Below, piece after piece: positions 8,957 to 51,323 of a DNA stretch of 64,000 nt. The notes below the pieces were generated by a model. It ran no database searches. It saw only the letters and a list, made by a program, of their open reading frames with translations, and was not told the DNA's origin. Origin of the DNA: a virus (taxonomy: Duplodnaviria > Caudoviricetes); the IMG/VR virus record IMGVR_UViG_3300017791_000194, positions 10,083-74,082 of that record. One strand, 5' to 3'. Position numbers and translations under genes: made by a program. Positions within the stretch are counted from its first letter, which is position 1, and every line of letters starts with the position of its first letter.

Positions 8957-9066
8957 GAGGCTGCGGCGATGATGCCGCAGCCTCCCATGCCACGCCTTGC
9001 CAAGCCAAGGCACGCCGAGCCAAACCATGCCGAGCCACGGCTAGCCATGCCTAGCCACGCCACGGC
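8957..9066 (-). ncRNA. GGY-NN array 1 (16 units) plus 3' hairpin; putative guide RNA
   Basis: Perfect 5-nt register 8985-9066; hairpin gaggctgcggc/gccgcagcctc 8957-8984; TACGCT on - strand at 9071-9076. Confidence 0.8.
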
Positions 9067-9090
9067 CTACAGCGTACAAGGAGACGTGCA

Positions 9091-9732
9091 ATGAGCACCA
9101 CCGACATCGAGAACGGCAGAGAGCTGACCGCCCTCGATCCCGTCAGCAACGACGGCGAACCAATCATCAAGTTTCAGGAGCCCTTCGTGGCGCGAGTCAC
9201 GATCCAGGGCGTGAGCGCGATCTTGTTTCACAGATGGAGCAACGAAGCGGTCGCTGCCAAGGCCGCCGCTGCGAAGAACAGCAAGGCGAAGAAGTCAGAC
9301 GACGTCGAGTCGTACTTGTATCGCGCCGACAACGGCAACATCGGCATCCCCGGTGAGTACCTGCGGCGCTCGATCATCACCGCTGCGAAGTTCAAGCAGG
9401 ACCCTCGCTCGCCACGGAAGTCGGCGATGGACCTGTACCAGGCGAGCATCATCAGCCTGACCGACCTTGCCGATACCGGCGCCAAGGAGCCCGACTACAT
9501 CGACCGCCGCCGGGTGACCGTGCAGCGATCTGGTGTGACGCGGGAGCGACCGGCGCTGCGGGCTGGCTGGACGGTCACGTTCGATCTGCTCTGCCAGTCT
9601 CCCGAGTACATCTCGCCTCAAGACCTTCTTGACACGATCACTCAGGCTGGCCGACTGGTCGGGATGGCTGACTTCCGCCCGAGCTTCGGCCGCTATCAGG
9701 TGACCCGGTTCGAGGTCACGCCCGCGGCATGA
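9091..9732 (+). CDS. vipr: stand-alone RAMP/Cas7-like protein (Vipr-like effector)
   Basis: N-terminal beta strand (RVTIQG), IPGEYLRRSI resembling the Cas7/Csm3 IPGSSLKG motif, C-terminal Gly loop GRLVGMADFRPSFGRY; adjacent GGY-NN array; no cas1/cas3/cas10 in window. Family name from recollection. Confidence 0.75.
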   Translation: MSTTDIENGRELTALDPVSNDGEPIIKFQEPFVARVTIQGVSAILFHRWSNEAVAAKAAAAKNSKAKKSDDVESYLYRADNGNIGIPGEYLRRSIITAAKFKQDPRSPRKSAMDLYQASIISLTDLADTGAKEPDYIDRRRVTVQRSGVTRERPALRAGWTVTFDLLCQSPEYISPQDLLDTITQAGRLVGMADFRPSFGRYQVTRFEVTPAA

Positions 9733-12499: not shown

Positions 12500-12627
12500 G
12501 CCTTGGCATGGCTGGGCCGGGTATGGCTGGGCATGGCGGGGCATGGCGGGGTTTGGCTTGGTGAGCCAGGGCTAGGCGCGGCGTGGCTAGGCGTGGCAAG
12601 GCATGGTCGTGACAGTCAGCTGTCACG
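12500..12627 (+). ncRNA. GGY-NN array 5 (22 units) plus 3' hairpin
   Basis: Perfect register 12500-12609; cgtgacag-tcag-ctgtcacg at 12608-12627. Confidence 0.8.
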
Positions 12628-17086: not shown

Positions 17087-17526
17087 TGACCCAGACCGCT
17101 GTACAGCGCCGGTTCGTCCGACTTGCGGGCAGTATGAACGCCCGGGCTGCGAGGCTGGGACGCAACGGCCGGGTCGTCTCGGGTGACCTGCTCAAGGTGT
17201 TCCTGCACACCGCCTACCAATGCCCCTACTGCGGCATTGGGATCACGCCCCTCGATTGCTCGTTTGATCACGTCGTCCCGTTCGATGCTGGCGGCGAAAA
17301 CGAGAAGGGCAACCTCGTTGCTTGTTGCCTCAGCTGCCAGCGCCAGAAGGCTCGTCGCTTGGCCCACGAGTTCGCCCTCGCGCGCGCGTACACGGCTTCC
17401 TGTGAGGTCTGCGGCCGGAACTTCAAACCCCGCTGGGCCGACGTCCGCAGAGGCTACGGCACGACCTGCTCTGCGCAATGTGCGGGCAAGAAGGGTCGTG
17501 CGATACGATCAGCGAGCGCGGCGTGA
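17086..17526 (+). CDS. HNH endonuclease with extra C-terminal Zn motifs
   Basis: CPYC...DHVVP...GGEN...NLVACCLSC. Confidence 0.85.
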   Translation: MTQTAVQRRFVRLAGSMNARAARLGRNGRVVSGDLLKVFLHTAYQCPYCGIGITPLDCSFDHVVPFDAGGENEKGNLVACCLSCQRQKARRLAHEFALARAYTASCEVCGRNFKPRWADVRRGYGTTCSAQCAGKKGRAIRSASAA

Positions 17527-17649: not shown

Positions 17650-18038
17650 GGACCGTCATCATCCCGCGTCCGCCATCGGTCAACAGTCTGTACCGCGTGG
17701 TGCTGCGAACAGCGCGAGATGGGCGGCGGTTCCACGGGATCGCGAAGACCGAGGAGGGCACACGGTTCCATGAGGACTCGCTCTGGCTTCTGCGGGCGGC
17801 GCCGCGCAACGGCTGGAAACCACCCGCCGAGGGCTACATCAGGATCAAGGTCCGCCCGTTCCTGGTTCGACCGATCGATTCAGACAACTTGTTGAAGGCC
17901 CTGAGCGACGTGATCCAGGCGGCCATTGGCGTCGATGATTCCAGATTCGTTTGGTGTACGTTCCCGCCCAAACTCGGGGTGCGCAAGGCCGACGCCCGGA
18001 TCGAGCTTGAAATCCTGGACGACGCCGGGCACGATTGA
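17643..18038 (+). CDS. rusA: RusA-family Holliday junction resolvase
   Basis: PPSVN, DSDNLLKALSD and GVDDS motifs. Confidence 0.85.
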   Translation: MAWTVIIPRPPSVNSLYRVVLRTARDGRRFHGIAKTEEGTRFHEDSLWLLRAAPRNGWKPPAEGYIRIKVRPFLVRPIDSDNLLKALSDVIQAAIGVDDSRFVWCTFPPKLGVRKADARIELEILDDAGHD

Positions 18039-18045
18039 CGTTCAT

Positions 18046-18200
18046 GGCGAGGCACGGCCTGCCGAGGCACGGCTGGGGTTGGCTAGGCCGGGCAAGCCGT
18101 GGCTAGGCGAGGTCTGGCTGGGCAAGGCTGGGCTGGGGGAGGCGTGGCGAGGCTAGCCAGGGCTGGGCAAGGCGAGGCAAGGCCGGGTGAGGCGTGGCAA
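18046..18200 (+). ncRNA. GGY-NN array 7 (31 units)
   Basis: Uninterrupted 155-nt register between two genes. Confidence 0.85.
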
Positions 18201-18628
18201 GGGTTGTTGTAGCTGGTTCTCGGGACATCGAGGATGCTGACGGGGCGGCTTGGTGGCTGTTCGATGTCATTCGCGTGATGGATGACCCGACAGTGATCAT
18301 GCGGCGCGGCCGGGAGACCGAGCCGGGACCGCTCGAAGAGGCCGTGGCGTTCCAGTGTCGCGACTATGGCATCCCGATCGAGTGGCGCGTGCCTGCACCC
18401 GGCGGTCGCCAGGAGGTCTTCAACCGGGACATGGACATGGTCACTGGCGCCGATCTCGTCCTGGCCGTGTTCTCACCGGAGCGAGCGATGTCAGGCGGCA
18501 CGGCGCACGTCGTCGAGAAGGCGATGGACATCCGCGTGCCCGCCTACGCCTTCGCGTACACAGGCAGGCTGGAGCGAGTGGGCGAGTTCGACCCAGATGA
18601 CATCTGGAGCAAACACATCAAGCTCTAG
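18194..18628 (+). CDS. SLOG-superfamily (DUF2493/YspA-like) protein
   Basis: VVVAGSRD N-terminus, RNxxM-like FNRDMDM, and SGGTAH motif. Confidence 0.7.
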   Translation: MARVVVAGSRDIEDADGAAWWLFDVIRVMDDPTVIMRRGRETEPGPLEEAVAFQCRDYGIPIEWRVPAPGGRQEVFNRDMDMVTGADLVLAVFSPERAMSGGTAHVVEKAMDIRVPAYAFAYTGRLERVGEFDPDDIWSKHIKL

Positions 18629-18849
18629 ACTCTGGCTGTATACCAGCGCCCGGGAAACAGGTGGGGGTCGACGGTATCGGCTGCGACGCCTTCGGGACGC
18701 AAGCCGGGCTGGCGCAGAGACAACAGACATGTGGCTCGCTCCCACGGAAGCGCCGGGGTTGATGAGAGGCCCGGCGTGGCAACGCCAGTAGCTCCGTCCC
18801 GTGAGGTGCCTGCTGTAATCGGGGTCGGCGCTGGTATACAGTGCGCGCG

Positions 18850-19284
18850 ATGGACGCGACCGCGCAGATGCTCACCCAGTCGGAGCGCCTGCTCAAGCAC
18901 TTCCGTGCAGAGTTCGAGCGCGAGATCCCGATCCGCATCCACAGTCGCGACACAGCCGACGACGGAGCGCCGCAATGGCACCCCGAGTTCGCCCGCTGGT
19001 TGACCGCGAAGGAGTCCGACACCAACAGCTACATCACCAACGGCGAGCATCGGCTCCGGACAAGGCGTGCGATGCGCAAGCTGCGCGGCACCTCGATTCG
19101 GGGCTTCGAGGTAACCTGGCGAGTCTTCGGTGGCGAACGTGTGGAGGACACCGCCCGATGGCTCAACGACCGCGCCGAGCGCAACGCACTGCCGCTCCCG
19201 CCAGGGCGAACGACCCACTACCGAACGAAGGACGCGCTGGCCATCCTGTACGCCTCACTGCTCTTCATGGAGTGGGCGTACTAG
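18850..19284 (+). CDS. hypothetical protein, possible late-gene regulator; candidate homolog of the array 8/9 targets
   Basis: ORF at the end of the early arm; function inferred from position only. Confidence 0.65.
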   Translation: MDATAQMLTQSERLLKHFRAEFEREIPIRIHSRDTADDGAPQWHPEFARWLTAKESDTNSYITNGEHRLRTRRAMRKLRGTSIRGFEVTWRVFGGERVEDTARWLNDRAERNALPLPPGRTTHYRTKDALAILYASLLFMEWAY

Positions 19285-19291
19285 GCACATT

Positions 19292-19431
19292 GGCGAGGCG
19301 TGCCGTGGCTGGCCAGGGTCTGGCATGGCGGGGCAGGGCGAGGCGGGGTCTGGCTTGGTTCGGCATGGCTAGGTCAGGCGTGGCCAGCCACGGCTGGGCT
19401 CGGCGCGGCATGGCGGGGCTTGGCATGGTGA
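19292..19431 (+). ncRNA. GGY-NN array 8 (28 units)
   Basis: Perfect register; terminal GGC-AT-G supplies the next start codon. Confidence 0.85.
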
Positions 19432-19934
19432 TCTTGCTGGCGGCGCCAGCCACCGCGGTGGCGCCGTCAGCACCTCGATCGATCCCTGACGCGGCGTTCG
19501 CGCCGGTGACCGTTCCGCAGGTCATCTACGATTTCCCCGAGCCAATGCCCGGGCAGCGGCCGGTGATCAAGCTGCCGAACAAGCCGATCGTTGAGGTGCA
19601 GCACCATGTAGATCGATCACGACCGGAAGCTTCCATCGGCCGGTCGATTTCTGGGCAAGCCAGCTGGTATTGCCGCGCTGGTGTCTCGGCTTGCCGCTAC
19701 GCCTACCCAGACGGGCCAGGCTTCGATGCCTATGCCGCAGCTGGCCCGAAGCTCCGTGCGGCGCTCGGCGACTGGCGCGGCCGGGTCGTCACCGTCAACG
19801 GCATCCGCGTGAAGCTCATCGACTGGTGTCAGTGCTCGAAGGGCAAGCCGGGCGAGAAGATCATCGATCTGTACTTCGATGTTGCCCGTGCTCTGGGCAT
19901 CACCGGAGTCGGCCCGGTCACGATACGCTGGTAG
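19425..19934 (+). CDS. RlpA-like double-psi beta-barrel protein with signal-like N-terminus
   Basis: GQASWY...V.LIDWC.C...IIDLY...LG..G...V.I.W pattern. Confidence 0.75.
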   Translation: MVILLAAPATAVAPSAPRSIPDAAFAPVTVPQVIYDFPEPMPGQRPVIKLPNKPIVEVQHHVDRSRPEASIGRSISGQASWYCRAGVSACRYAYPDGPGFDAYAAAGPKLRAALGDWRGRVVTVNGIRVKLIDWCQCSKGKPGEKIIDLYFDVARALGITGVGPVTIRW

Positions 19935-20033
19935 GCCGTGGCGCGGCCGGGCAGGGCAAGGCCTGAGCGGGCCGGGGCTCGGCGAGGCAGGGCAAGGTGG
20001 GGCTGGGCTAGGGCGTGGCATGGCATGGCATGG
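19935..20033 (+). ncRNA. GGY-NN array 9 (~19 units, two 1-nt slips)
   Basis: Begins immediately after TAG; ends (GGCAT)3. Confidence 0.8.
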
Positions 20034-20038
20034 AACGC

Positions 20039-20066
20039 TTGACAACCTGACTGAACGTGTTAGCCT
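20039..20066 (+). promoter_or_regulatory. sigma70-type promoter for the RNA/tRNA cluster
   Basis: TTGACA-16 nt-TAGCCT with extended TGn. Confidence 0.65.
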
Positions 20067-20072
20067 GCCATT

Positions 20073-20297
20073 CCTGGTCAGATTTCCAATGGACCGGAGG
20101 ACTGATCAGGTAGAGTGCTTGCCCCTGGACGGACAAGGCTTTGGCCCCGAGCAAATAGGGCTTGCCCCCTGAAGCGCACAACGGGGATGGGTAGCGAGTG
20201 GTCCAGGGGCATCCGAAGGAGGCTCTCGATGTTCACGCGATAGGGACGGCATCACGAAGTGCCGTCCACATGACGGCCGCCGTCCCGCGCAAGGGAC
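20073..20297 (+). ncRNA. unidentified structured RNA or leader
   Basis: Several helices, including tgcccctggac/gtccaggggca and ggacggca/tgccgtcc; no ORF. Confidence 0.4.
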
Positions 20298-20300
20298 ATC

Positions 20301-20492
20301 ATGGGCGTCGACAAGCAATCCAAGAAGGTCAAGAGGGCAACCCTCTCGGCCAAGCCGCGCTACGGGGGCGACCCGTACGTGGACCGTCACGGAGTGTCAA
20401 CCGAAAATCATCTTCAGCTCTGGCGTCGCCTGGTGGCGAACGGACCCGTGATGCACGGGCCTCCGGGCCCACCGCGACCCCACAAGAGCTGA
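20301..20492 (+). CDS. small basic protein (63 aa); homolog of the array 10 target
   Basis: Array 10 NNs match codons RHGVSTENH in frame. Confidence 0.65.
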   Translation: MGVDKQSKKVKRATLSAKPRYGGDPYVDRHGVSTENHLQLWRRLVANGPVMHGPPGPPRPHKS

Positions 20493-20567
20493 ACCACGCC
20501 ACGCCATGCCTGGGCTTGCCTCGCCGTGCCGAGCCATGGCCCACCGTGCCCGGCCTGGCCTCGCCAA
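20493..20567 (-). ncRNA. GGY-NN array 10 (15 units)
   Basis: Perfect register; TATGAT on - strand at 20575-20580. Confidence 0.8.
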
Positions 20568-20581
20568 GATGTTCATCATAG

Positions 20582-20657
20582 TGCCGGGTGGCCAAGTAGG
20601 TAAGGCACCGCGCTCTGAACGCGGCAATCGCTGGTTCGAGTCCAGCCCCGGCAACCA
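20582..20657 (+). tRNA. tRNA-Gln (CTG)
   Basis: tgccggg/cccggca acceptor, ccgcg-ctCTGaa-cgcgg, GGTTCGAG T-loop, encoded CCA. Confidence 0.93.
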
Positions 20658-20795
20658 ATCAACATGGCGGCAGACGGGATGTCCGCGGCAGTCCCGCCAA
20701 CCAGACAGAGACGGTGAGACCGGACCCGGTTCCGCCCGGGCGAGCACTCTGCCGATCGAAGGACCGAGCCCAGGGTCGTGGGCAGCCGTCTCCAT

Positions 20796-20883
20796 GGCAT
20801 AGGGAAGCGCTGGGGTCAGCGCGCTGGCTGGTGAGTGCCTCGACAGCCAGAGGTCTGGGTTCGAGTCCCGGCCCTGTGCCGCC
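20796..20883 (+). tRNA. tRNA-like element with a 17-nt expanded anticodon loop
   Basis: ggcataggg/ccctgtgcc acceptor, D-like arm, ctggc/gccag stem, GGTTCGAG T-arm; no clean CCA. Confidence 0.5.
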
Positions 20884-20886
20884 TTC

Positions 20887-20962
20887 GCCGACGTAGCTCA
20901 GTGGACAGAGCGGCTGGTTTCTACCCAGCATGTCGCGGGTTCGACTCCTGCCGTCGGCGCCA
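20887..20962 (+). tRNA. tRNA-Arg (TCT)
   Basis: gccgacg/cgtcggc acceptor, gctgg-ttTCTac-ccagc, CCA. Confidence 0.93.
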
Positions 20963-20965
20963 TCG

Positions 20966-21042
20966 GGGCGGCTAGCTCAGTTGGTCAGAGCATCTGGTCG
21001 ACATCCAGAAGGCCGCTGGTTCAAGTCCAGCGCCGCCCACCA
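20966..21042 (+). tRNA. tRNA-Val (GAC), with C33
   Basis: gggcggc/gccgccc acceptor, tctgg-tcGACat-ccaga, CCA. Confidence 0.88.
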
Positions 21043-21052
21043 GGACAAACTG

Positions 21053-21105
21053 AAACCCCCTGGACTGACAGACCCTTGCGGGGCTGCCCTTCCAGGGGGT
21101 TTTTA
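21053..21105 (+). terminator. intrinsic terminator after the tRNA cluster
   Basis: aaaccccctgga...tccagggggttttt. Confidence 0.7.
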
Positions 21106-21399
21106 CATGGTGGCGGGACTGCCTACCCGCACGGACGTCGCGACTTGTGGTTCAAGTACAACTTGCGTCCGACACACCCGTCGTCAGTGGCTAGCTGACT
21201 AGTCGTTCAGAGATCACCTCCCTCGCCATCAACCCTTTGGTCGATGGTCCGGGTCTCCTCCACCTGCGCGCCTCACCCTCGTAGGCCTTGACAACGCTGG
21301 CGTTTCCTGAACCGGGCGCTCCGTTTCACCAGGGGCCGCGAAGCCCCGGTCATTCCGGCATCACCCTGCGATGCTCCGTCGAACACCGCATTGTCAAGC

Positions 21400-21429
21400 A
21401 TTCTAGGTGTGTTCTGGTAGGCTTGTCAA
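21400..21429 (-). promoter_or_regulatory. leftward sigma70-like promoter overlapping a rightward extended -10
   Basis: - strand TTGACA-18 nt-TAGAAT; + strand TGG-TAGGCT at 21415-21423. Confidence 0.5.
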
Positions 21430-21435
21430 GCAAGC

Positions 21436-21550
21436 GGCGCGGCTAGGTTGGGCTAGCCGTGGCTGGGCATGGTGCGGCGTGGCTGGGCAGGGCATGGCTA
21501 GGTGTGGCCCGGTCAGGCTGGGCGTCTTCGAGCACGGACGAGTTCCGTGC
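21436..21550 (+). ncRNA. GGY-NN array 11 (18 units) plus 3' hairpin
   Basis: Perfect register 21436-21525; gcacgga-cgagt-tccgtgc at 21532-21550. Confidence 0.8.
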
Positions 21551-21707
21551 CGCAGTGCGGGCACGGCTCAGCCTTCTCACCAGGCAGCTTCAACCTGCCG
21601 TAGTAGGCGGTGCATTTTGGGCACCGCAACGGCAAGCCGTGGGGCTGCGCGAGGGCTTCTGGGGCGAGTGGGCGACGGGGCCGACGGTACAGCCCCGGCC
21701 CGGTCAA
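21513..21707 (-). CDS. small zinc-ribbon protein
   Basis: CPKC...CPHC; TTGA overlap with the upstream gene. Confidence 0.45.
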   Translation of the reverse strand: MTGPGLYRRPRRPLAPEALAQPHGLPLRCPKCTAYYGRLKLPGEKAEPCPHCGTELVRARRRPA

Positions 21708-22174
21708 CCGTCTGGAGGAAGGGGCACCCCGTCGGTGCCATCAGTGGGCATTTCAGAAGACACCTCAGGCGGGATCATGGACTTGATGATGCCGCGCGTT
21801 CGGATCGCGTAGTAGATCGTGGCCGCCAGAAACGCGACCGTCACAATCCCGGAGACAAACGAGCGGGCAACTGGATCTGGCAGAGGCAGATCGACGAGCT
21901 TGTAGCGAGTCAGGATCGTCCCCACGATGACATAGGCGAACCAGGTGAAGGTCAGCAGCTTGAGGCTATTGGCATCAAGCAGCATCCGAAAAAACTGAGA
22001 TCGGGGCCGCGGGGTCGAGTAGTAGATGCGGTAGAGATCGAGGAGGGCCACAATCGCCCCCAAGAACGTCGTCACGATGGACACAGTGATCGCGATGCCT
22101 GGGTCAACGCCGATCGCCAGAGCGATCACCGTTGGCACCATGAGCAGCGCCACGATCAGTGCGTAGAGCTTCAC
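21704..22174 (-). CDS. multi-TM membrane protein (lysis region)
   Basis: About four hydrophobic helices. Confidence 0.7.
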   Translation of the reverse strand: MKLYALIVALLMVPTVIALAIGVDPGIAITVSIVTTFLGAIVALLDLYRIYYSTPRPRSQFFRMLLDANSLKLLTFTWFAYVIVGTILTRYKLVDLPLPDPVARSFVSGIVTVAFLAATIYYAIRTRGIIKSMIPPEVSSEMPTDGTDGVPLPPDG

Positions 22175-22380
22175 CCGCTACCTCTCCGTTTCGCGACAAC
22201 CTGAAAGACCTGGTCGGCAGTGGCCAATGCTCGTTTGGTCGCCTCGGCTTGGGCCTGAAGGCGCTGACGATGTCGTCGCTCTGCTTCGGCGAGTGCCTTG
22301 TGCTCTTCGTCTGGCACCTTGGGATTCTGACGAAGGAACATGGTGGCCACCTGCTGTAGAAGCTTCATCAACGACATCAT
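22171..22380 (-). CDS. small protein (lysis region)
   Basis: ATGA and GTGA overlaps. Confidence 0.55.
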   Translation of the reverse strand: MMSLMKLLQQVATMFLRQNPKVPDEEHKALAEAERRHRQRLQAQAEATKRALATADQVFQVVAKRRGSG

Positions 22381-22712
22381 CGTCGCACACCCCCGTTCGG
22401 GGAAGTGTCCTGTAACCTGCGAATGATCTCCTCAACGGCCTCTTTTAGCGCCGTCTCGCGCTGTTTTCGCAAGGCTTCCACAGAACCCGTGAGGGCCTGC
22501 ACGGCAACGGTCAGATCGGCCATGCCCTTGCTGGATGTTTCGGCGATCGACTGCCATCGATCACGCGCCGTTTTGACGTCGAGGATGTACTCCCGGACGA
22601 GCGAGAGCAGGACTTTGCCGCCGTACCAAATCAGCAGGATCGCCGCGACTGTGAGCCCGAGGGGCCCCAGGAGCTGGTCGAAGGGGATTGTGTCGGCGGT
22701 GACGACTGGCAC
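22377..22712 (-). CDS. TM plus coiled-coil protein, holin/spanin-like
   Basis: One TM then coiled coil; lysis cassette context. Confidence 0.55.
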   Translation of the reverse strand: MPVVTADTIPFDQLLGPLGLTVAAILLIWYGGKVLLSLVREYILDVKTARDRWQSIAETSSKGMADLTVAVQALTGSVEALRKQRETALKEAVEEIIRRLQDTSPNGGVRR

Positions 22713-22731
22713 AACAACCCCCTCCGATCAC

Positions 22732-23148
22732 CTACTTCGATGTACCGGACAGGCTCGCGGCCACGCCAGAGGGCTTGAGCGCCTTGTCGTAGAACGCTGA
22801 GGTGAAACCTGCCAGGTTGACCCACGCCATGAATGTAAGGAACCCACTGGCGACGGTCAGCTGAGCACCGGTCTGGTTGAACGCAATCGCGATCAACACC
22901 GCATCGACGATCATCGAGAACACGCTCTCGTGGCCAGGCACGAGCGGAAGGCGCTTCGCAACCTCAAGGATCGAGGACACGATCGCGCCCGCAATGGGGA
23001 TACCGCCTGCGGTCAGCAGAAGCGCGAAGTCAATGGTCTGTGGGTCGACGACCTCGCTCGTTGTCGCGAGGACGATCCCCGCGAGTAGGGACATGGCTGA
23101 CGCTGCGAGGAGCAGCGCCACGCCGACGATCTTGATGTTCCTTGCCAT
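22732..23148 (-). CDS. probable holin
   Basis: Multiple TM helices directly after the endolysin candidate. Confidence 0.55.
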   Translation of the reverse strand: MARNIKIVGVALLLAASAMSLLAGIVLATTSEVVDPQTIDFALLLTAGGIPIAGAIVSSILEVAKRLPLVPGHESVFSMIVDAVLIAIAFNQTGAQLTVASGFLTFMAWVNLAGFTSAFYDKALKPSGVAASLSGTSK

Positions 23149-23178
23149 CTCTCTCCTCTCCTCTTTCTGTCGCGTGAC

Positions 23179-23967
23179 TCAGAAGTCAACCGTCCGATGG
23201 ATCACGCGAGCACGCCAGATGTGCGTGTAGGGCAGGGCGACCCGCCCGTTGACGCCATAGTCAGTGCCCCATGAGTTCTGGAACCAGATCCCAATGTTGT
23301 CGTTGTAGCCGTAGCACCAGATCTCGTGGTAGCCGATGAAGTAGTCGGGCGCGGGCAGCTTGCCCGACGCCAGCGGGTGCTCCCAGCTGTGGAAGAACGG
23401 CAGCAGAAACAAGACGCCATGGTCATGGCTGATCGCGGTCTTGATCGCGTTGACGGTCTTGTCCAGGACGATCGCCTTCCTGATCCGGTGGACCGAAGCA
23501 TGCGGCGTCGAATCGTCCTCGGGGTAACCCCGGTCGATGCGCTCTTGATTGGCGGCGTCGATCGATGCGCCGTAGGCGTTGCCGCCGATGCGGTAGAAGA
23601 ACTTCTCCTCGTCGAGGTCGAAGAACTGGCCCAGCTCCGGCCGGTCGTGCTGGTTCTGGTCGTAGGCACTGGCGTGCGCCACGCACCGAGGTGTCGTCCC
23701 TTGGTTGGTGACCGGGGGCCGCGTCTTGAGCGGGATGTAGTCGTACGACGGATAGCCCGCTCCAGCGAGCGGTGAGCCAGCCAGAGCGAGGACCGGCCCT
23801 GCCTCGACGTCCTCGTCAGCGTCCGGATCTTCGGCCTTCTTGTCGATGAGACCAGGCAGCACGATCACGCCACGGCCGTGCTCATGTGGGCCATGGCCAT
23901 TGTCCTTTTTGCCGTGTTCCTTTGACTTTTCCTTCGGCTTCTGCTTGTCATCCCATGGACTAGGCAT
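23179..23967 (-). CDS. papain-like (C1) cysteine peptidase, endolysin candidate
   Basis: NQGTTPRCVAHA (Q..C), HEIWCYGY (His), FQNSWG..YG..G. Confidence 0.8.
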   Translation of the reverse strand: MPSPWDDKQKPKEKSKEHGKKDNGHGPHEHGRGVIVLPGLIDKKAEDPDADEDVEAGPVLALAGSPLAGAGYPSYDYIPLKTRPPVTNQGTTPRCVAHASAYDQNQHDRPELGQFFDLDEEKFFYRIGGNAYGASIDAANQERIDRGYPEDDSTPHASVHRIRKAIVLDKTVNAIKTAISHDHGVLFLLPFFHSWEHPLASGKLPAPDYFIGYHEIWCYGYNDNIGIWFQNSWGTDYGVNGRVALPYTHIWRARVIHRTVDF

Positions 23968-23988
23968 CCTGATGGTTCTCCTTTCCGC

Positions 23989-25371
23989 TCATGCTTCTTC
24001 GACCAGGACCCATGAGCCAGCCTGCGCCGACCCACGCGATGCCCCATCGAGATTGACGGTGTTGCTGCCGGTCGTCGACCAGTACAGCTTCACGGTGTAC
24101 GTTGTGCCCGGTGTAAGGCCGGTGAAGATGTAGCCGATGGCGACATTCTTACGATCGGCAACGCCGTCCCACCCACCAGCTCCGCAGTTGAACTTGTTGG
24201 TGCCGCCATCGATGCTGGCGGAGATGATCGTATCGGCAGTGACGGCGCCCATCTTCAGGACCAACTCACCGATCATCTTGACCCGGCCTGTCTGGCCACA
24301 GACGATCGAGACGTCCATCGACGAGCTGATCGCGGGCGCCGAGCCGCTGCTCGTGCTTAGGTCGGTCGACGGCGCCTCCGTTCGGCTCGGCGGGTTCGGG
24401 AGGTCAGCTGGCTTCGAGTCGATCCGCATGATGGAGAAGTGTGCTTGCGCCTCGTAGGCCGAGGCGTGCCCAACCGTCCTGTTGCCCGTGAAGTAAACCT
24501 CGATGTAGTCGCCCGCCGCGAGGTCATACACGCCGCCGCCTGATACATAGTCACCGCCGCTTCCGTGACCCTCGTTGAGCGAGATCAAGCCCGAACCGTT
24601 GAGCCGCACTCGGCAGAACTCCCCAGCCCCGAGCGAGGCAACCACCGCGCCGTACTCGAACAGGTACTTGCCGCCCATCCCGGCGGGGATCGTCAGACGA
24701 CCCGTGTTCGACCCTGTGGAGTGGAACCCGTCGGTGTCGAACTTCTCCGAGTTGAACAGGATCACGTCGTTGTTGACGGTCTGCGTCGTGTTGTGATAGA
24801 CGAGCGCCCCGACGCCGGACCCGACACGACCACCGTCGAGCTTGACGAGCTGCGCGGCGGCGCGGTAGATGTTGAAGGCCCCGCCAGAGCCGTAGTCGCA
24901 CCAAGCGTACAGTTCCACAAAGTCGCCAGAAGCAAGATCGAGTATCGCGCTGATGGACAACGCATTTGAGTGTCCATTGAGCACCGAGTTCGTGATCCGT
25001 GTTACTTCGTTGGCGTTGACCCGAACGTAGATTTCCATATCGGTGCCCGCGGTGTCGGTGGTGGTGTAGCTGCCCTCGAACAGGTATTTGCCACCGAGGC
25101 CTGCCGGGATCGTGAACCGACTCGGATTCGTGGTGTTGTCGTGAAAGCCATCAGTATCGAAAACCTCGTGCTTGATCGGTACGGAAGCGTAGGTAGACCG
25201 CGTCACTGTTTGAGCGTCGCCGGAGTCTGTGTAGCCGCCCGCGCCGATGAAGCTGGCCGGGAGCGCGCCCTCGATGGTGTGATCCGCGTTCCAGTTCGAC
25301 GGGCGCACCAAGGTGGCATCACCGCCGTCGCTCTTGGCGCTGACGAATGGGTGGTAGACGCGAGTGGTCAT
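23989..25371 (-). CDS. tail fibre/receptor-binding protein with two C1q-like repeats
   Basis: Duplicated FDTDGFH...R(F/L)TIPAG(L/M)GGKYLFE...L..GD(F/Y)(V/I)E. Confidence 0.7.
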   Translation of the reverse strand: MTTRVYHPFVSAKSDGGDATLVRPSNWNADHTIEGALPASFIGAGGYTDSGDAQTVTRSTYASVPIKHEVFDTDGFHDNTTNPSRFTIPAGLGGKYLFEGSYTTTDTAGTDMEIYVRVNANEVTRITNSVLNGHSNALSISAILDLASGDFVELYAWCDYGSGGAFNIYRAAAQLVKLDGGRVGSGVGALVYHNTTQTVNNDVILFNSEKFDTDGFHSTGSNTGRLTIPAGMGGKYLFEYGAVVASLGAGEFCRVRLNGSGLISLNEGHGSGGDYVSGGGVYDLAAGDYIEVYFTGNRTVGHASAYEAQAHFSIMRIDSKPADLPNPPSRTEAPSTDLSTSSGSAPAISSSMDVSIVCGQTGRVKMIGELVLKMGAVTADTIISASIDGGTNKFNCGAGGWDGVADRKNVAIGYIFTGLTPGTTYTVKLYWSTTGSNTVNLDGASRGSAQAGSWVLVEEA

Positions 25372-51223: not shown

Positions 51224-51323
51224 GCCCTGCCTTGGCACGGCGAGTCTGGGCATGGCCGGGTCGGGCCTGGCGGGGTTGGGCTGGGCATGGCGTGGGAGGA
51301 GCTGTTCATCCGAGCAGCTCCTC
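51224..51323 (+). ncRNA. GGY-NN array 12 (14 units) plus 3' hairpin
   Basis: Register 51224-51293; gaggagctg/cagctcctc at 51296-51323; CATACT at 51218. Confidence 0.8.

Follow-up and report, generated by a model that had tools for sequence, protein, structure and literature searches.

A GGY-NN array beside a small phage gene as a candidate VIPR guide against rival alleles of that gene

VIPR systems and the array-bearing phage genome

VIPR is a CRISPR-like DNA silencer first described in 2026 (bioRxiv 10.64898/2026.04.26.720920 and 10.64898/2026.04.26.720927), in which a small RAMP protein, Vipr, polymerises on vrRNAs built of GGY-NN repeats. In each unit, the NN bases of the vrRNA read double-stranded DNA and one DNA base is skipped (10.64898/2026.04.26.720920); the skipped base usually corresponds to the codon wobble, and binding silences transcription (2026 VIPR preprints). 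Published vrRNAs consist of tandem GGY-NN units (YNNGG), at least four and typically 9-16 of them, are about 100 nt long and co-purify with Vipr, and for SUSP1 vrRNA4 a six-unit footprint is described as functional. The VIPR papers distinguish seven types with variable architectures, among which a pseudoknot 3' tail is found in the SUSP1 clade. Natural targets, known so far for a few enterobacterial and Pseudomonas clades, were called at ≥80% NN identity, a line that is a bioinformatic criterion and not a measured tolerance, and no self hits at ≥80% were found (10.64898/2026.04.26.720920). For guides directed at relatives, with a self-match below the non-self match, there is a precedent in a later study (10.64898/2026.10.15.759431).

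The window analysed here, 64,000 nucleotides long, spans positions 10083-74082 of an IMG/VR virus record that totals 74,082 bp and has terminal repeats; the G+C content of the window is 63.6%. A megablast search of the GenBank phages with positions 18000-24000 gave no match, so the phage has no close relative there. The genome carries 18 arrays of 5-nt units in which GGY is constant and two bases are variable, the NN strings all differing from one another; these arrays are spread over more than 50 kb, and some of them reach 26-31 units. One ORF (vipr, Table 1) matched the SUSP1 Vipr protein with an E value of 1.6e-7 as a single sequence and of 5.1e-11 when a profile of 12 homologs was used, the profile match extending over positions 66-194 of 198 and including the C-terminal glycine-rich loop. 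The match of the same ORF to PHROG 4652 had an E value of 7e-21. GGY-NN arrays were found beside vipr in 14 of 15 homolog loci from IMG/VR, and in related vipr loci the arrays come directly after the gene. A search for a vap gene beside vipr yielded no significant Pfam match for the 99-aa ORF that overlaps the vipr stop codon or for its neighbours.

The closest described systems are those of Type II VIPR, from Escherichia phage SUSP1 and a Pseudomonas fulva prophage, with which this genome shares a Vipr RAMP homolog, tandem GGY-NN units with hypervariable NN, a one-base skip at the codon wobble on either strand, and targets at ≥80% NN identity, which in the published systems lie in competing mobile elements, combined with the lack of any self hit at that level. 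In contrast to Type II, the Vipr sequence is distant, the arrays are dispersed and not clustered at vipr, the arrays have an AT/GT end signature, and in some cases a following hairpin, in place of a pseudoknot tail, no vap gene was recognised, and the gene targeted is small and conserved, the carrier having its own copy of it immediately next to the guide. The missing 3' tail still allows membership of VIPR in the wider sense, since the seven types vary in architecture, and by its sequence array 10, the subject of this work, fits a vrRNA of a published-type VIPR system. The RAMP-RNA complex invoked in the original prediction for this locus has its counterpart in the published Vipr-vrRNA complex. 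A more remote likeness exists with the Cas7 filaments of Class 1 CRISPR-Cas, where RAMP subunits also polymerise on a guide RNA, periodic positions stay unpaired and foreign DNA is recognised. Here, however, neither a repeat-spacer array nor cas1/cas2 or other cas genes were seen, the system is phage-borne, and the guide information is non-contiguous, using two of every five RNA bases and two of every three DNA bases.

Table 1. Features of the array 10 locus and match of the array 10 guide to members of the small-gene family. Positions refer to the window; fractions are read bases that agree with the guide.
Feature	Position	Strand	Remarks
vipr, RAMP effector gene	9091-9732	+	PDB 36pp_D (SUSP1 Vipr); PHROG 4652
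Promoter-like TTGACA-16-TAGCCT	20039-20066	+	putatively heads a unit with the small gene and tRNAs; conserved in L014
63-aa gene	20301-20492	+	widespread small phage protein family; allele class without the extra codon
Near-self site in own small gene	20379-20422	+	20/30 (67%), 15 units
Array 10, candidate vrRNA guide region	20491-20565	-	15 tandem GGY-NN pentamers; reads 20565->20491
Last three units of array 10	20491-20505	-	match every allele only half-way
-10-like hexamer TATGAT, candidate vrRNA promoter	20575-20580	-	9 nt upstream of the first GGY unit of array 10
tRNA-Gln	20582-20657	+	bounds array 10
Further TAnnnT hexamers upstream of arrays	9071-9076; 57049-57054	-; +	
Array-end signature, examples	20491-20505; 57151-57165; 61255-61269; 12595-12609		
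Site in L013, 74.5-kb Logan contig			26/30 (87%); units 1-12 23/24
Site in L012, ENA contig			25/30 (83%); units 1-12 22/24
Site in L014, JGI/IMG-VR contig, closest syntenic relative			23/30 (77%); units 1-12 20/24
Sites in L004, L011 and L015, other family contigs			21/30 each
Site in L003, other family contig			19/30

Array 10 and the alleles of the 63-aa gene

Array 10 has the stop codon of a 63-aa ORF on one side and tRNA-Gln on the other, and lies 11 kb from vipr among the dispersed arrays (array 1 is the one that adjoins vipr). It is convergent with the 63-aa gene and overlaps its stop codon. Thirteen of its 15 units are perfect GGY and two are GCC, a variant present in other arrays of the same genome too, and the 5-nt phase is intact over 75 nt with zero indels. 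Upstream of the first GGY unit, at a distance of 9-12 nt, a TAnnnT hexamer was found in 8 of the 18 arrays, against a background of 0.7% (P 2e-13), which suggests that many arrays are separate small transcription units. The hexamer of array 10, TATGAT, falls within the 5' edge of the tRNA-Gln region, in antisense orientation, and it was not called in a consensus promoter scan. Rfam gave no match on array 10.

The 3' ends of the arrays have a signature of their own. Among the final two GGC units of the arrays, AT or GT is present in 18 of 26 cases, compared with 29 of 145 interior units (P 1.5e-6), and these final units are followed by one GGT, GGG or GGA unit. This signature may be a 3' handle or a processing signal. 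In array 10, the last three units are probably part of this signature and not of the guide, which would be the reason for their poor fit to all alleles (Table 1). In co-oriented arrays, the letters of the end signature double as ATG/GTG start codons. No conserved structured 3' tail was common to the 3' flanks of the 18 arrays, and none was found for array 10; hairpins follow some of the arrays. The minus-strand RNA at array 10 folds more stably than shuffled sequences (z -2.9), the fold lying within coding sequence, and the consensus scan gave no clear terminator that would define the array 10 RNA. A 239-nt contig identical to 20276-20513 was found in a wastewater library labelled RNA-Seq; since strand, transcript ends and level cannot be read from this contig, no conclusion was drawn from it.

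The original prediction held that the dinucleotides of array 10 agree with codons of the adjacent ORF, and our analysis reproduced this: units 3-11, compared with 20385-20411 (+), are exact in seven of nine cases, five of them consecutive, and agree in 15 of 18 bases. The unread base is at the wobble position, because the distance from the start of the ORF to the start of the site (20379-20301) is divisible by 3. Over units 1-12 the own site reaches 18/24 (75%), and it keeps 13 of 14 bases across seven consecutive units. It is the best site in the 74-kb genome, the runners-up having 19 and 18 read bases, and with a score of 20/30 it leaves array 10 without any self-target at ≥80% in the carrier genome. 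Within that genome, no 12-unit window of any array with at least nine units reaches 19/24. Taken alone, the own-gene match is insignificant genome-wide: in 12-16% of trials a shuffled guide finds a site of ≥20/30 at some place in the genome, and the share of trials in which a given 9-unit window attains 15/18 is 2.4%. The match stands out only through its adjacency to array 10, from which it is about 70-190 nt away (decoy-window p 0.013 with a mismatch penalty of -1 and 0.000 with -2, within 400 nt). For 3 of the 18 arrays, the best local genome-wide match falls within 400 nt of the array itself, a flanking window that makes up about 1.2% of the genome for each. Array 51234-51293 (+) has its best genome-wide local match at about 51097 (-), within about 140 nt (decoy p 0.000-0.035), and is thus a further example of a guide next to a near-self site.

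Members of the same gene family in other contigs were matched better. The original prediction named the lack of a better-matching homolog as part of what would refute it, and such homologs exist: L013 scores 26/30, L012 25/30 and L014 23/30, the own site 20/30. In each of the eight family sites the reading frame is respected and the skip coincides with the wobble position. The highest score among 3000 shuffled guides on the same loci was 22/30. Applying skip rules of 0, 2 or 3 to the relatives gave only 18/30, the signal being unique to the skip-1 register. The one-base-skip code is assumed here to be transferable from the distant SUSP1 Vipr, an assumption that this skip-1-only signal supports. 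The better-fitting alleles, the limit of 22/30 in the shuffles and the restriction to the skip-1 register all favor the first of the two options raised in the original prediction, that of a guide against relatives. At one unit, the guide reads Ser as TC and several alleles have AGC, a synonymous two-base change that breaks the unit. In IMG/VR, exact matching only, the patterns for the 9-unit core and for 10 of 12 units gave zero matches; a 16-base guide pattern gave six, all in unrelated coding sequences, and these were discarded as chance. When the arrays of L014 and of the 15 vipr loci were compared with the 63-aa family and with the own copy as a possible reciprocal attack, none reached 20/24.

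The contigs that carry these alleles are related to the window to different degrees. L014 is collinear with 13.4-27.9 kb of the window, its proteins there being 65-80% identical, and it too contains many arrays. A vipr gene is absent from the L014 record, but this is uninformative, because the record covers 47% and stops short of the position where vipr would be expected. In place of array 10, between the small gene and tRNA-Gln, L014 has a 74-aa gene, which implies that array 10 is lineage-specific at this position. L013, L011 and L015 share little with the window beyond the small gene, and no arrays were called in the stretches of them that were examined, while L012 is too short for its relatedness to be judged. 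At L013:6538-13559, L013 being the contig with the best-matching allele, a product of more than 5,200 residues is encoded, with ADP-ribosyltransferase-toxin-like and NUDIX Pfam matches.

The 63-aa gene itself belongs to a widespread family. The first search gave one homolog, a profile search of 1.8 billion representatives gave 12 at E ≤ 0.001, and a profile search of the 90% clusters gave 111 family proteins; the region upstream of the small gene is conserved in three other contigs. The original prediction had taken the match to the array as a sign that the ORF is real. The ORF is indeed real, but the grounds for this are the 111-protein family and the conserved upstream region, which are independent of the array match. 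Searches of Pfam, PHROGs and the ESM Atlas gave no functional lead for the 63-aa protein. In IMG/VR, the protein itself found no relative and the family alignment found only the L014 record, and since a scan of bacterial genomes with the family returned only a weak Nafulsella match, no prophage host was inferred.

The footprint of array 10 covers the most conserved columns of the family. Units 6-12 decode the family consensus I-S-T-E-N-H-M exactly, and around this block there are two allele classes, V-D-R-x-G versus D-x-R-T-G, the latter with an extra residue and Thr. The first five units of array 10 spell the D-x-R-T-G class; the own gene belongs to the V-D-R-x-G class. Compared with the block spelt by the guide, the own allele has one codon fewer and shows His, Val and Leu in place of Thr, Ile and Met, respectively. 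At the Val position, Ile is found in 87 of 108 members and in 20 of the 21 closest homologs, and at the Leu position Met is found in 73 of 112 members. In the core of the eight alleles, codon positions 1 and 2, which are read, are more conserved (majority-base shares of 0.89 and 0.88) than position 3, which is skipped (0.70).

Upstream of the small gene, the promoter-like element TTGACA-16-TAGCCT has a counterpart at L014:9047-9074, the common form being TTGACA-16-TAnCCT. It was not called in the consensus promoter scan, and we infer that it is the promoter of a unit formed by the small gene and the tRNAs. A GC-rich hairpin precedes the small gene at 20243-20267, as it does at L014:9596-9619, L003:287-310 and L004:576-599; compared with L003, L004 and L014, the stem has another sequence in this phage while its pairing is retained, and the hairpin may be a regulatory element of the family.

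Proposed action of array 10 and competing explanations

These data lead us to consider it likely that array 10 is a VIPR vrRNA gene aimed at rival alleles of the small gene, which the own allele presumably escapes. The vrRNA would be transcribed, probably from the minus strand, starting at its own -10-like TATGAT. Vipr would then form a polymer along the GGY motifs, with the NN dinucleotides presented so that they read double-stranded DNA in steps of two bases in and one skipped. Units 1-12 spell the coding block D-(H/Q)-R-T-G-I-S-T-E-N-H-M of the allele class with the extra codon and Thr, a class that occurs in other phages, the closest syntenic relative included. If a rival phage were present in the same cell, the complex would bind the rival copy and block transcription of the small gene and of everything downstream, which in this lineage is a tRNA cluster that would be blocked too. 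The own allele would be protected by its one-codon difference, which puts the first two units out of register, together with the substitutions at read positions. Some findings weigh against this proposal: the Vipr is only distantly related to that of SUSP1, two units of array 10 are GCC, a structured 3' tail was looked for and not found, and the closest syntenic relative reaches only 77% over the full guide. The two best targets lie in a contig otherwise unrelated to the window (L013) and in one too short to judge (L012), so that infection of one shared host is a presumption.

As regards the tRNA cluster, the 228 nt between tRNA-Gln and tRNA-Arg (20658-20886) contain a tRNA-Sec-like sequence at 20796-20880 that scores 32.7 bits, below the cut-off of 47. 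This stretch is skipped in a contig from one public run, where 20657 is followed immediately by 20886, and in L014 the interval between tRNA-Gln and tRNA-Arg holds tRNA-Thr and tRNA-Ala.

The vrRNA could instead act at home, its partial match to the own small gene tuning the expression of this gene and of the downstream tRNAs. Such autoregulation would agree with an own site that is both the best in the genome and adjacent to array 10, and with a stretch of 13/14 bases over seven consecutive units, a six-unit footprint being described as functional for SUSP1 vrRNA4; for these last two reasons some self-binding by the guide is possible. Nevertheless, the full guide reaches 67% at this site, under the published 80% criterion, at which published systems have no self hits, and the foreign alleles fit much better. 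Moreover, the own allele mismatches the guide exactly at its rare, apparently derived residues and at the codon deletion, a pattern that looks like avoidance, and we regard autoregulation as unlikely. We attach little credence to array 10 being an inactive relic or a product of chance, that is, a decaying or non-functional array whose resemblance to the family has no present function. Its two GCC units, the lack of a recognisable tail, its absence from the same position in the closest relative and the genome-wide insignificance of the own match would all be consistent with decay, but scores of 26/30 and 25/30 against a maximum of 22/30 in 3000 shuffles, confined to the skip-1 register, argue otherwise, as do the 5-nt phase kept over 75 nt, a promoter-like hexamer at the distance common to 8 of 18 arrays, and the GCC units of the other arrays in the genome.

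A further explanation dispenses with Vipr altogether. Array 10 is convergent with the 63-aa gene and overlaps its stop codon, and the minus-strand fold has a z of -2.9 against shuffles, as could be expected if a minus-strand transcript entered the gene and acted as a plain cis-antisense RNA, through pairing or transcriptional interference. This would leave unexplained both the 5-nt GGY periodicity and the match to foreign alleles in a 3-nt register; furthermore, the fold is part of conserved coding sequence and the RNA has no clear terminator to define it, which makes a plain antisense RNA very improbable.

A guide against rival alleles would be closest to the solo or native vrRNAs of the SUSP1 family that match vipr or vrRNAs of relatives (10.64898/2026.10.15.759431), for which a version of the target is also present in the carrier with a lower self-match, and in which the guide is wobble-aligned on conserved codons. 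It differs from them in that the carrier is VIPR-positive, the target is the 63-aa family and not vipr or a vrRNA, discrimination is by allele class (a one-codon indel plus substitutions), and the guide adjoins the resistant allele.

Guides beside less well matching copies of their targets

Two other arrays have a comparable arrangement. Array 1 (8987-9061, -), which is divergent from vipr, matches the antisense strand of the own vipr gene at 9280-9323 (-) with 19/30, and matches the same conserved site in vipr of 14 relatives with 18-21/30, reaching 20/24 over units 1-12 at L027:2570-2613; from its sequence, it looks like the vipr-targeting guides published for SUSP1-family phages. In L014, a 10-unit array just upstream of the HNH gene of that phage (L014:6560-6609, +) matches the HNH gene of the window, confirmed by Pfam, with 17/20 at 17098-17126 (-), compared with 12/20 for its own HNH gene. 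About 0.1-0.35 matches of this kind are expected from shuffled arrays, and the L014 array is a candidate guide against the HNH allele of the window phage. Because array 10, array 1 and the L014 array share this arrangement, it may be a rule in the clade that a guide is located next to a copy of its target which belongs to the carrier and matches less well. The published work on anti-relative guides, which reports a lower self-match for vipr and vrRNA targets (10.64898/2026.10.15.759431), is not known to describe such a linkage of a guide to a neighbouring copy.

More tentatively, the linkage could be deliberate in this clade, each guide and the resistant allele of the attacked gene making up a poison-antidote cassette, although we hold this to be somewhat doubtful. 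If true, guide and escape allele would travel together by recombination between co-infecting relatives and could drive allele replacement; in a stronger version, new guides would be born locally, templated on the neighbouring gene. Homing endonuclease genes located beside a cleavage-resistant allele offer an analogy, and only that, since there too a weapon and the carrier's resistant version of the target are inherited together; here, in contrast, no nuclease is implied, and silencing is expected over cleavage.

On sequence evidence alone, the match of array 10 to the small-gene alleles carries the one-base-skip code over into a distant phage clade of high GC content whose arrays are dispersed, and points to a new natural VIPR target, a widespread small phage gene that would be read at its most conserved block. 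It also offers a candidate solution to self/non-self discrimination, in which the carrier keeps a different allele class right beside the guide, and array 10 supplies a triplet of guide, target and escape allele that can be tested biochemically. If the arrangement is general, it would bear on the origin and spread of VIPR guides and on the way in which phages avoid autoimmunity.
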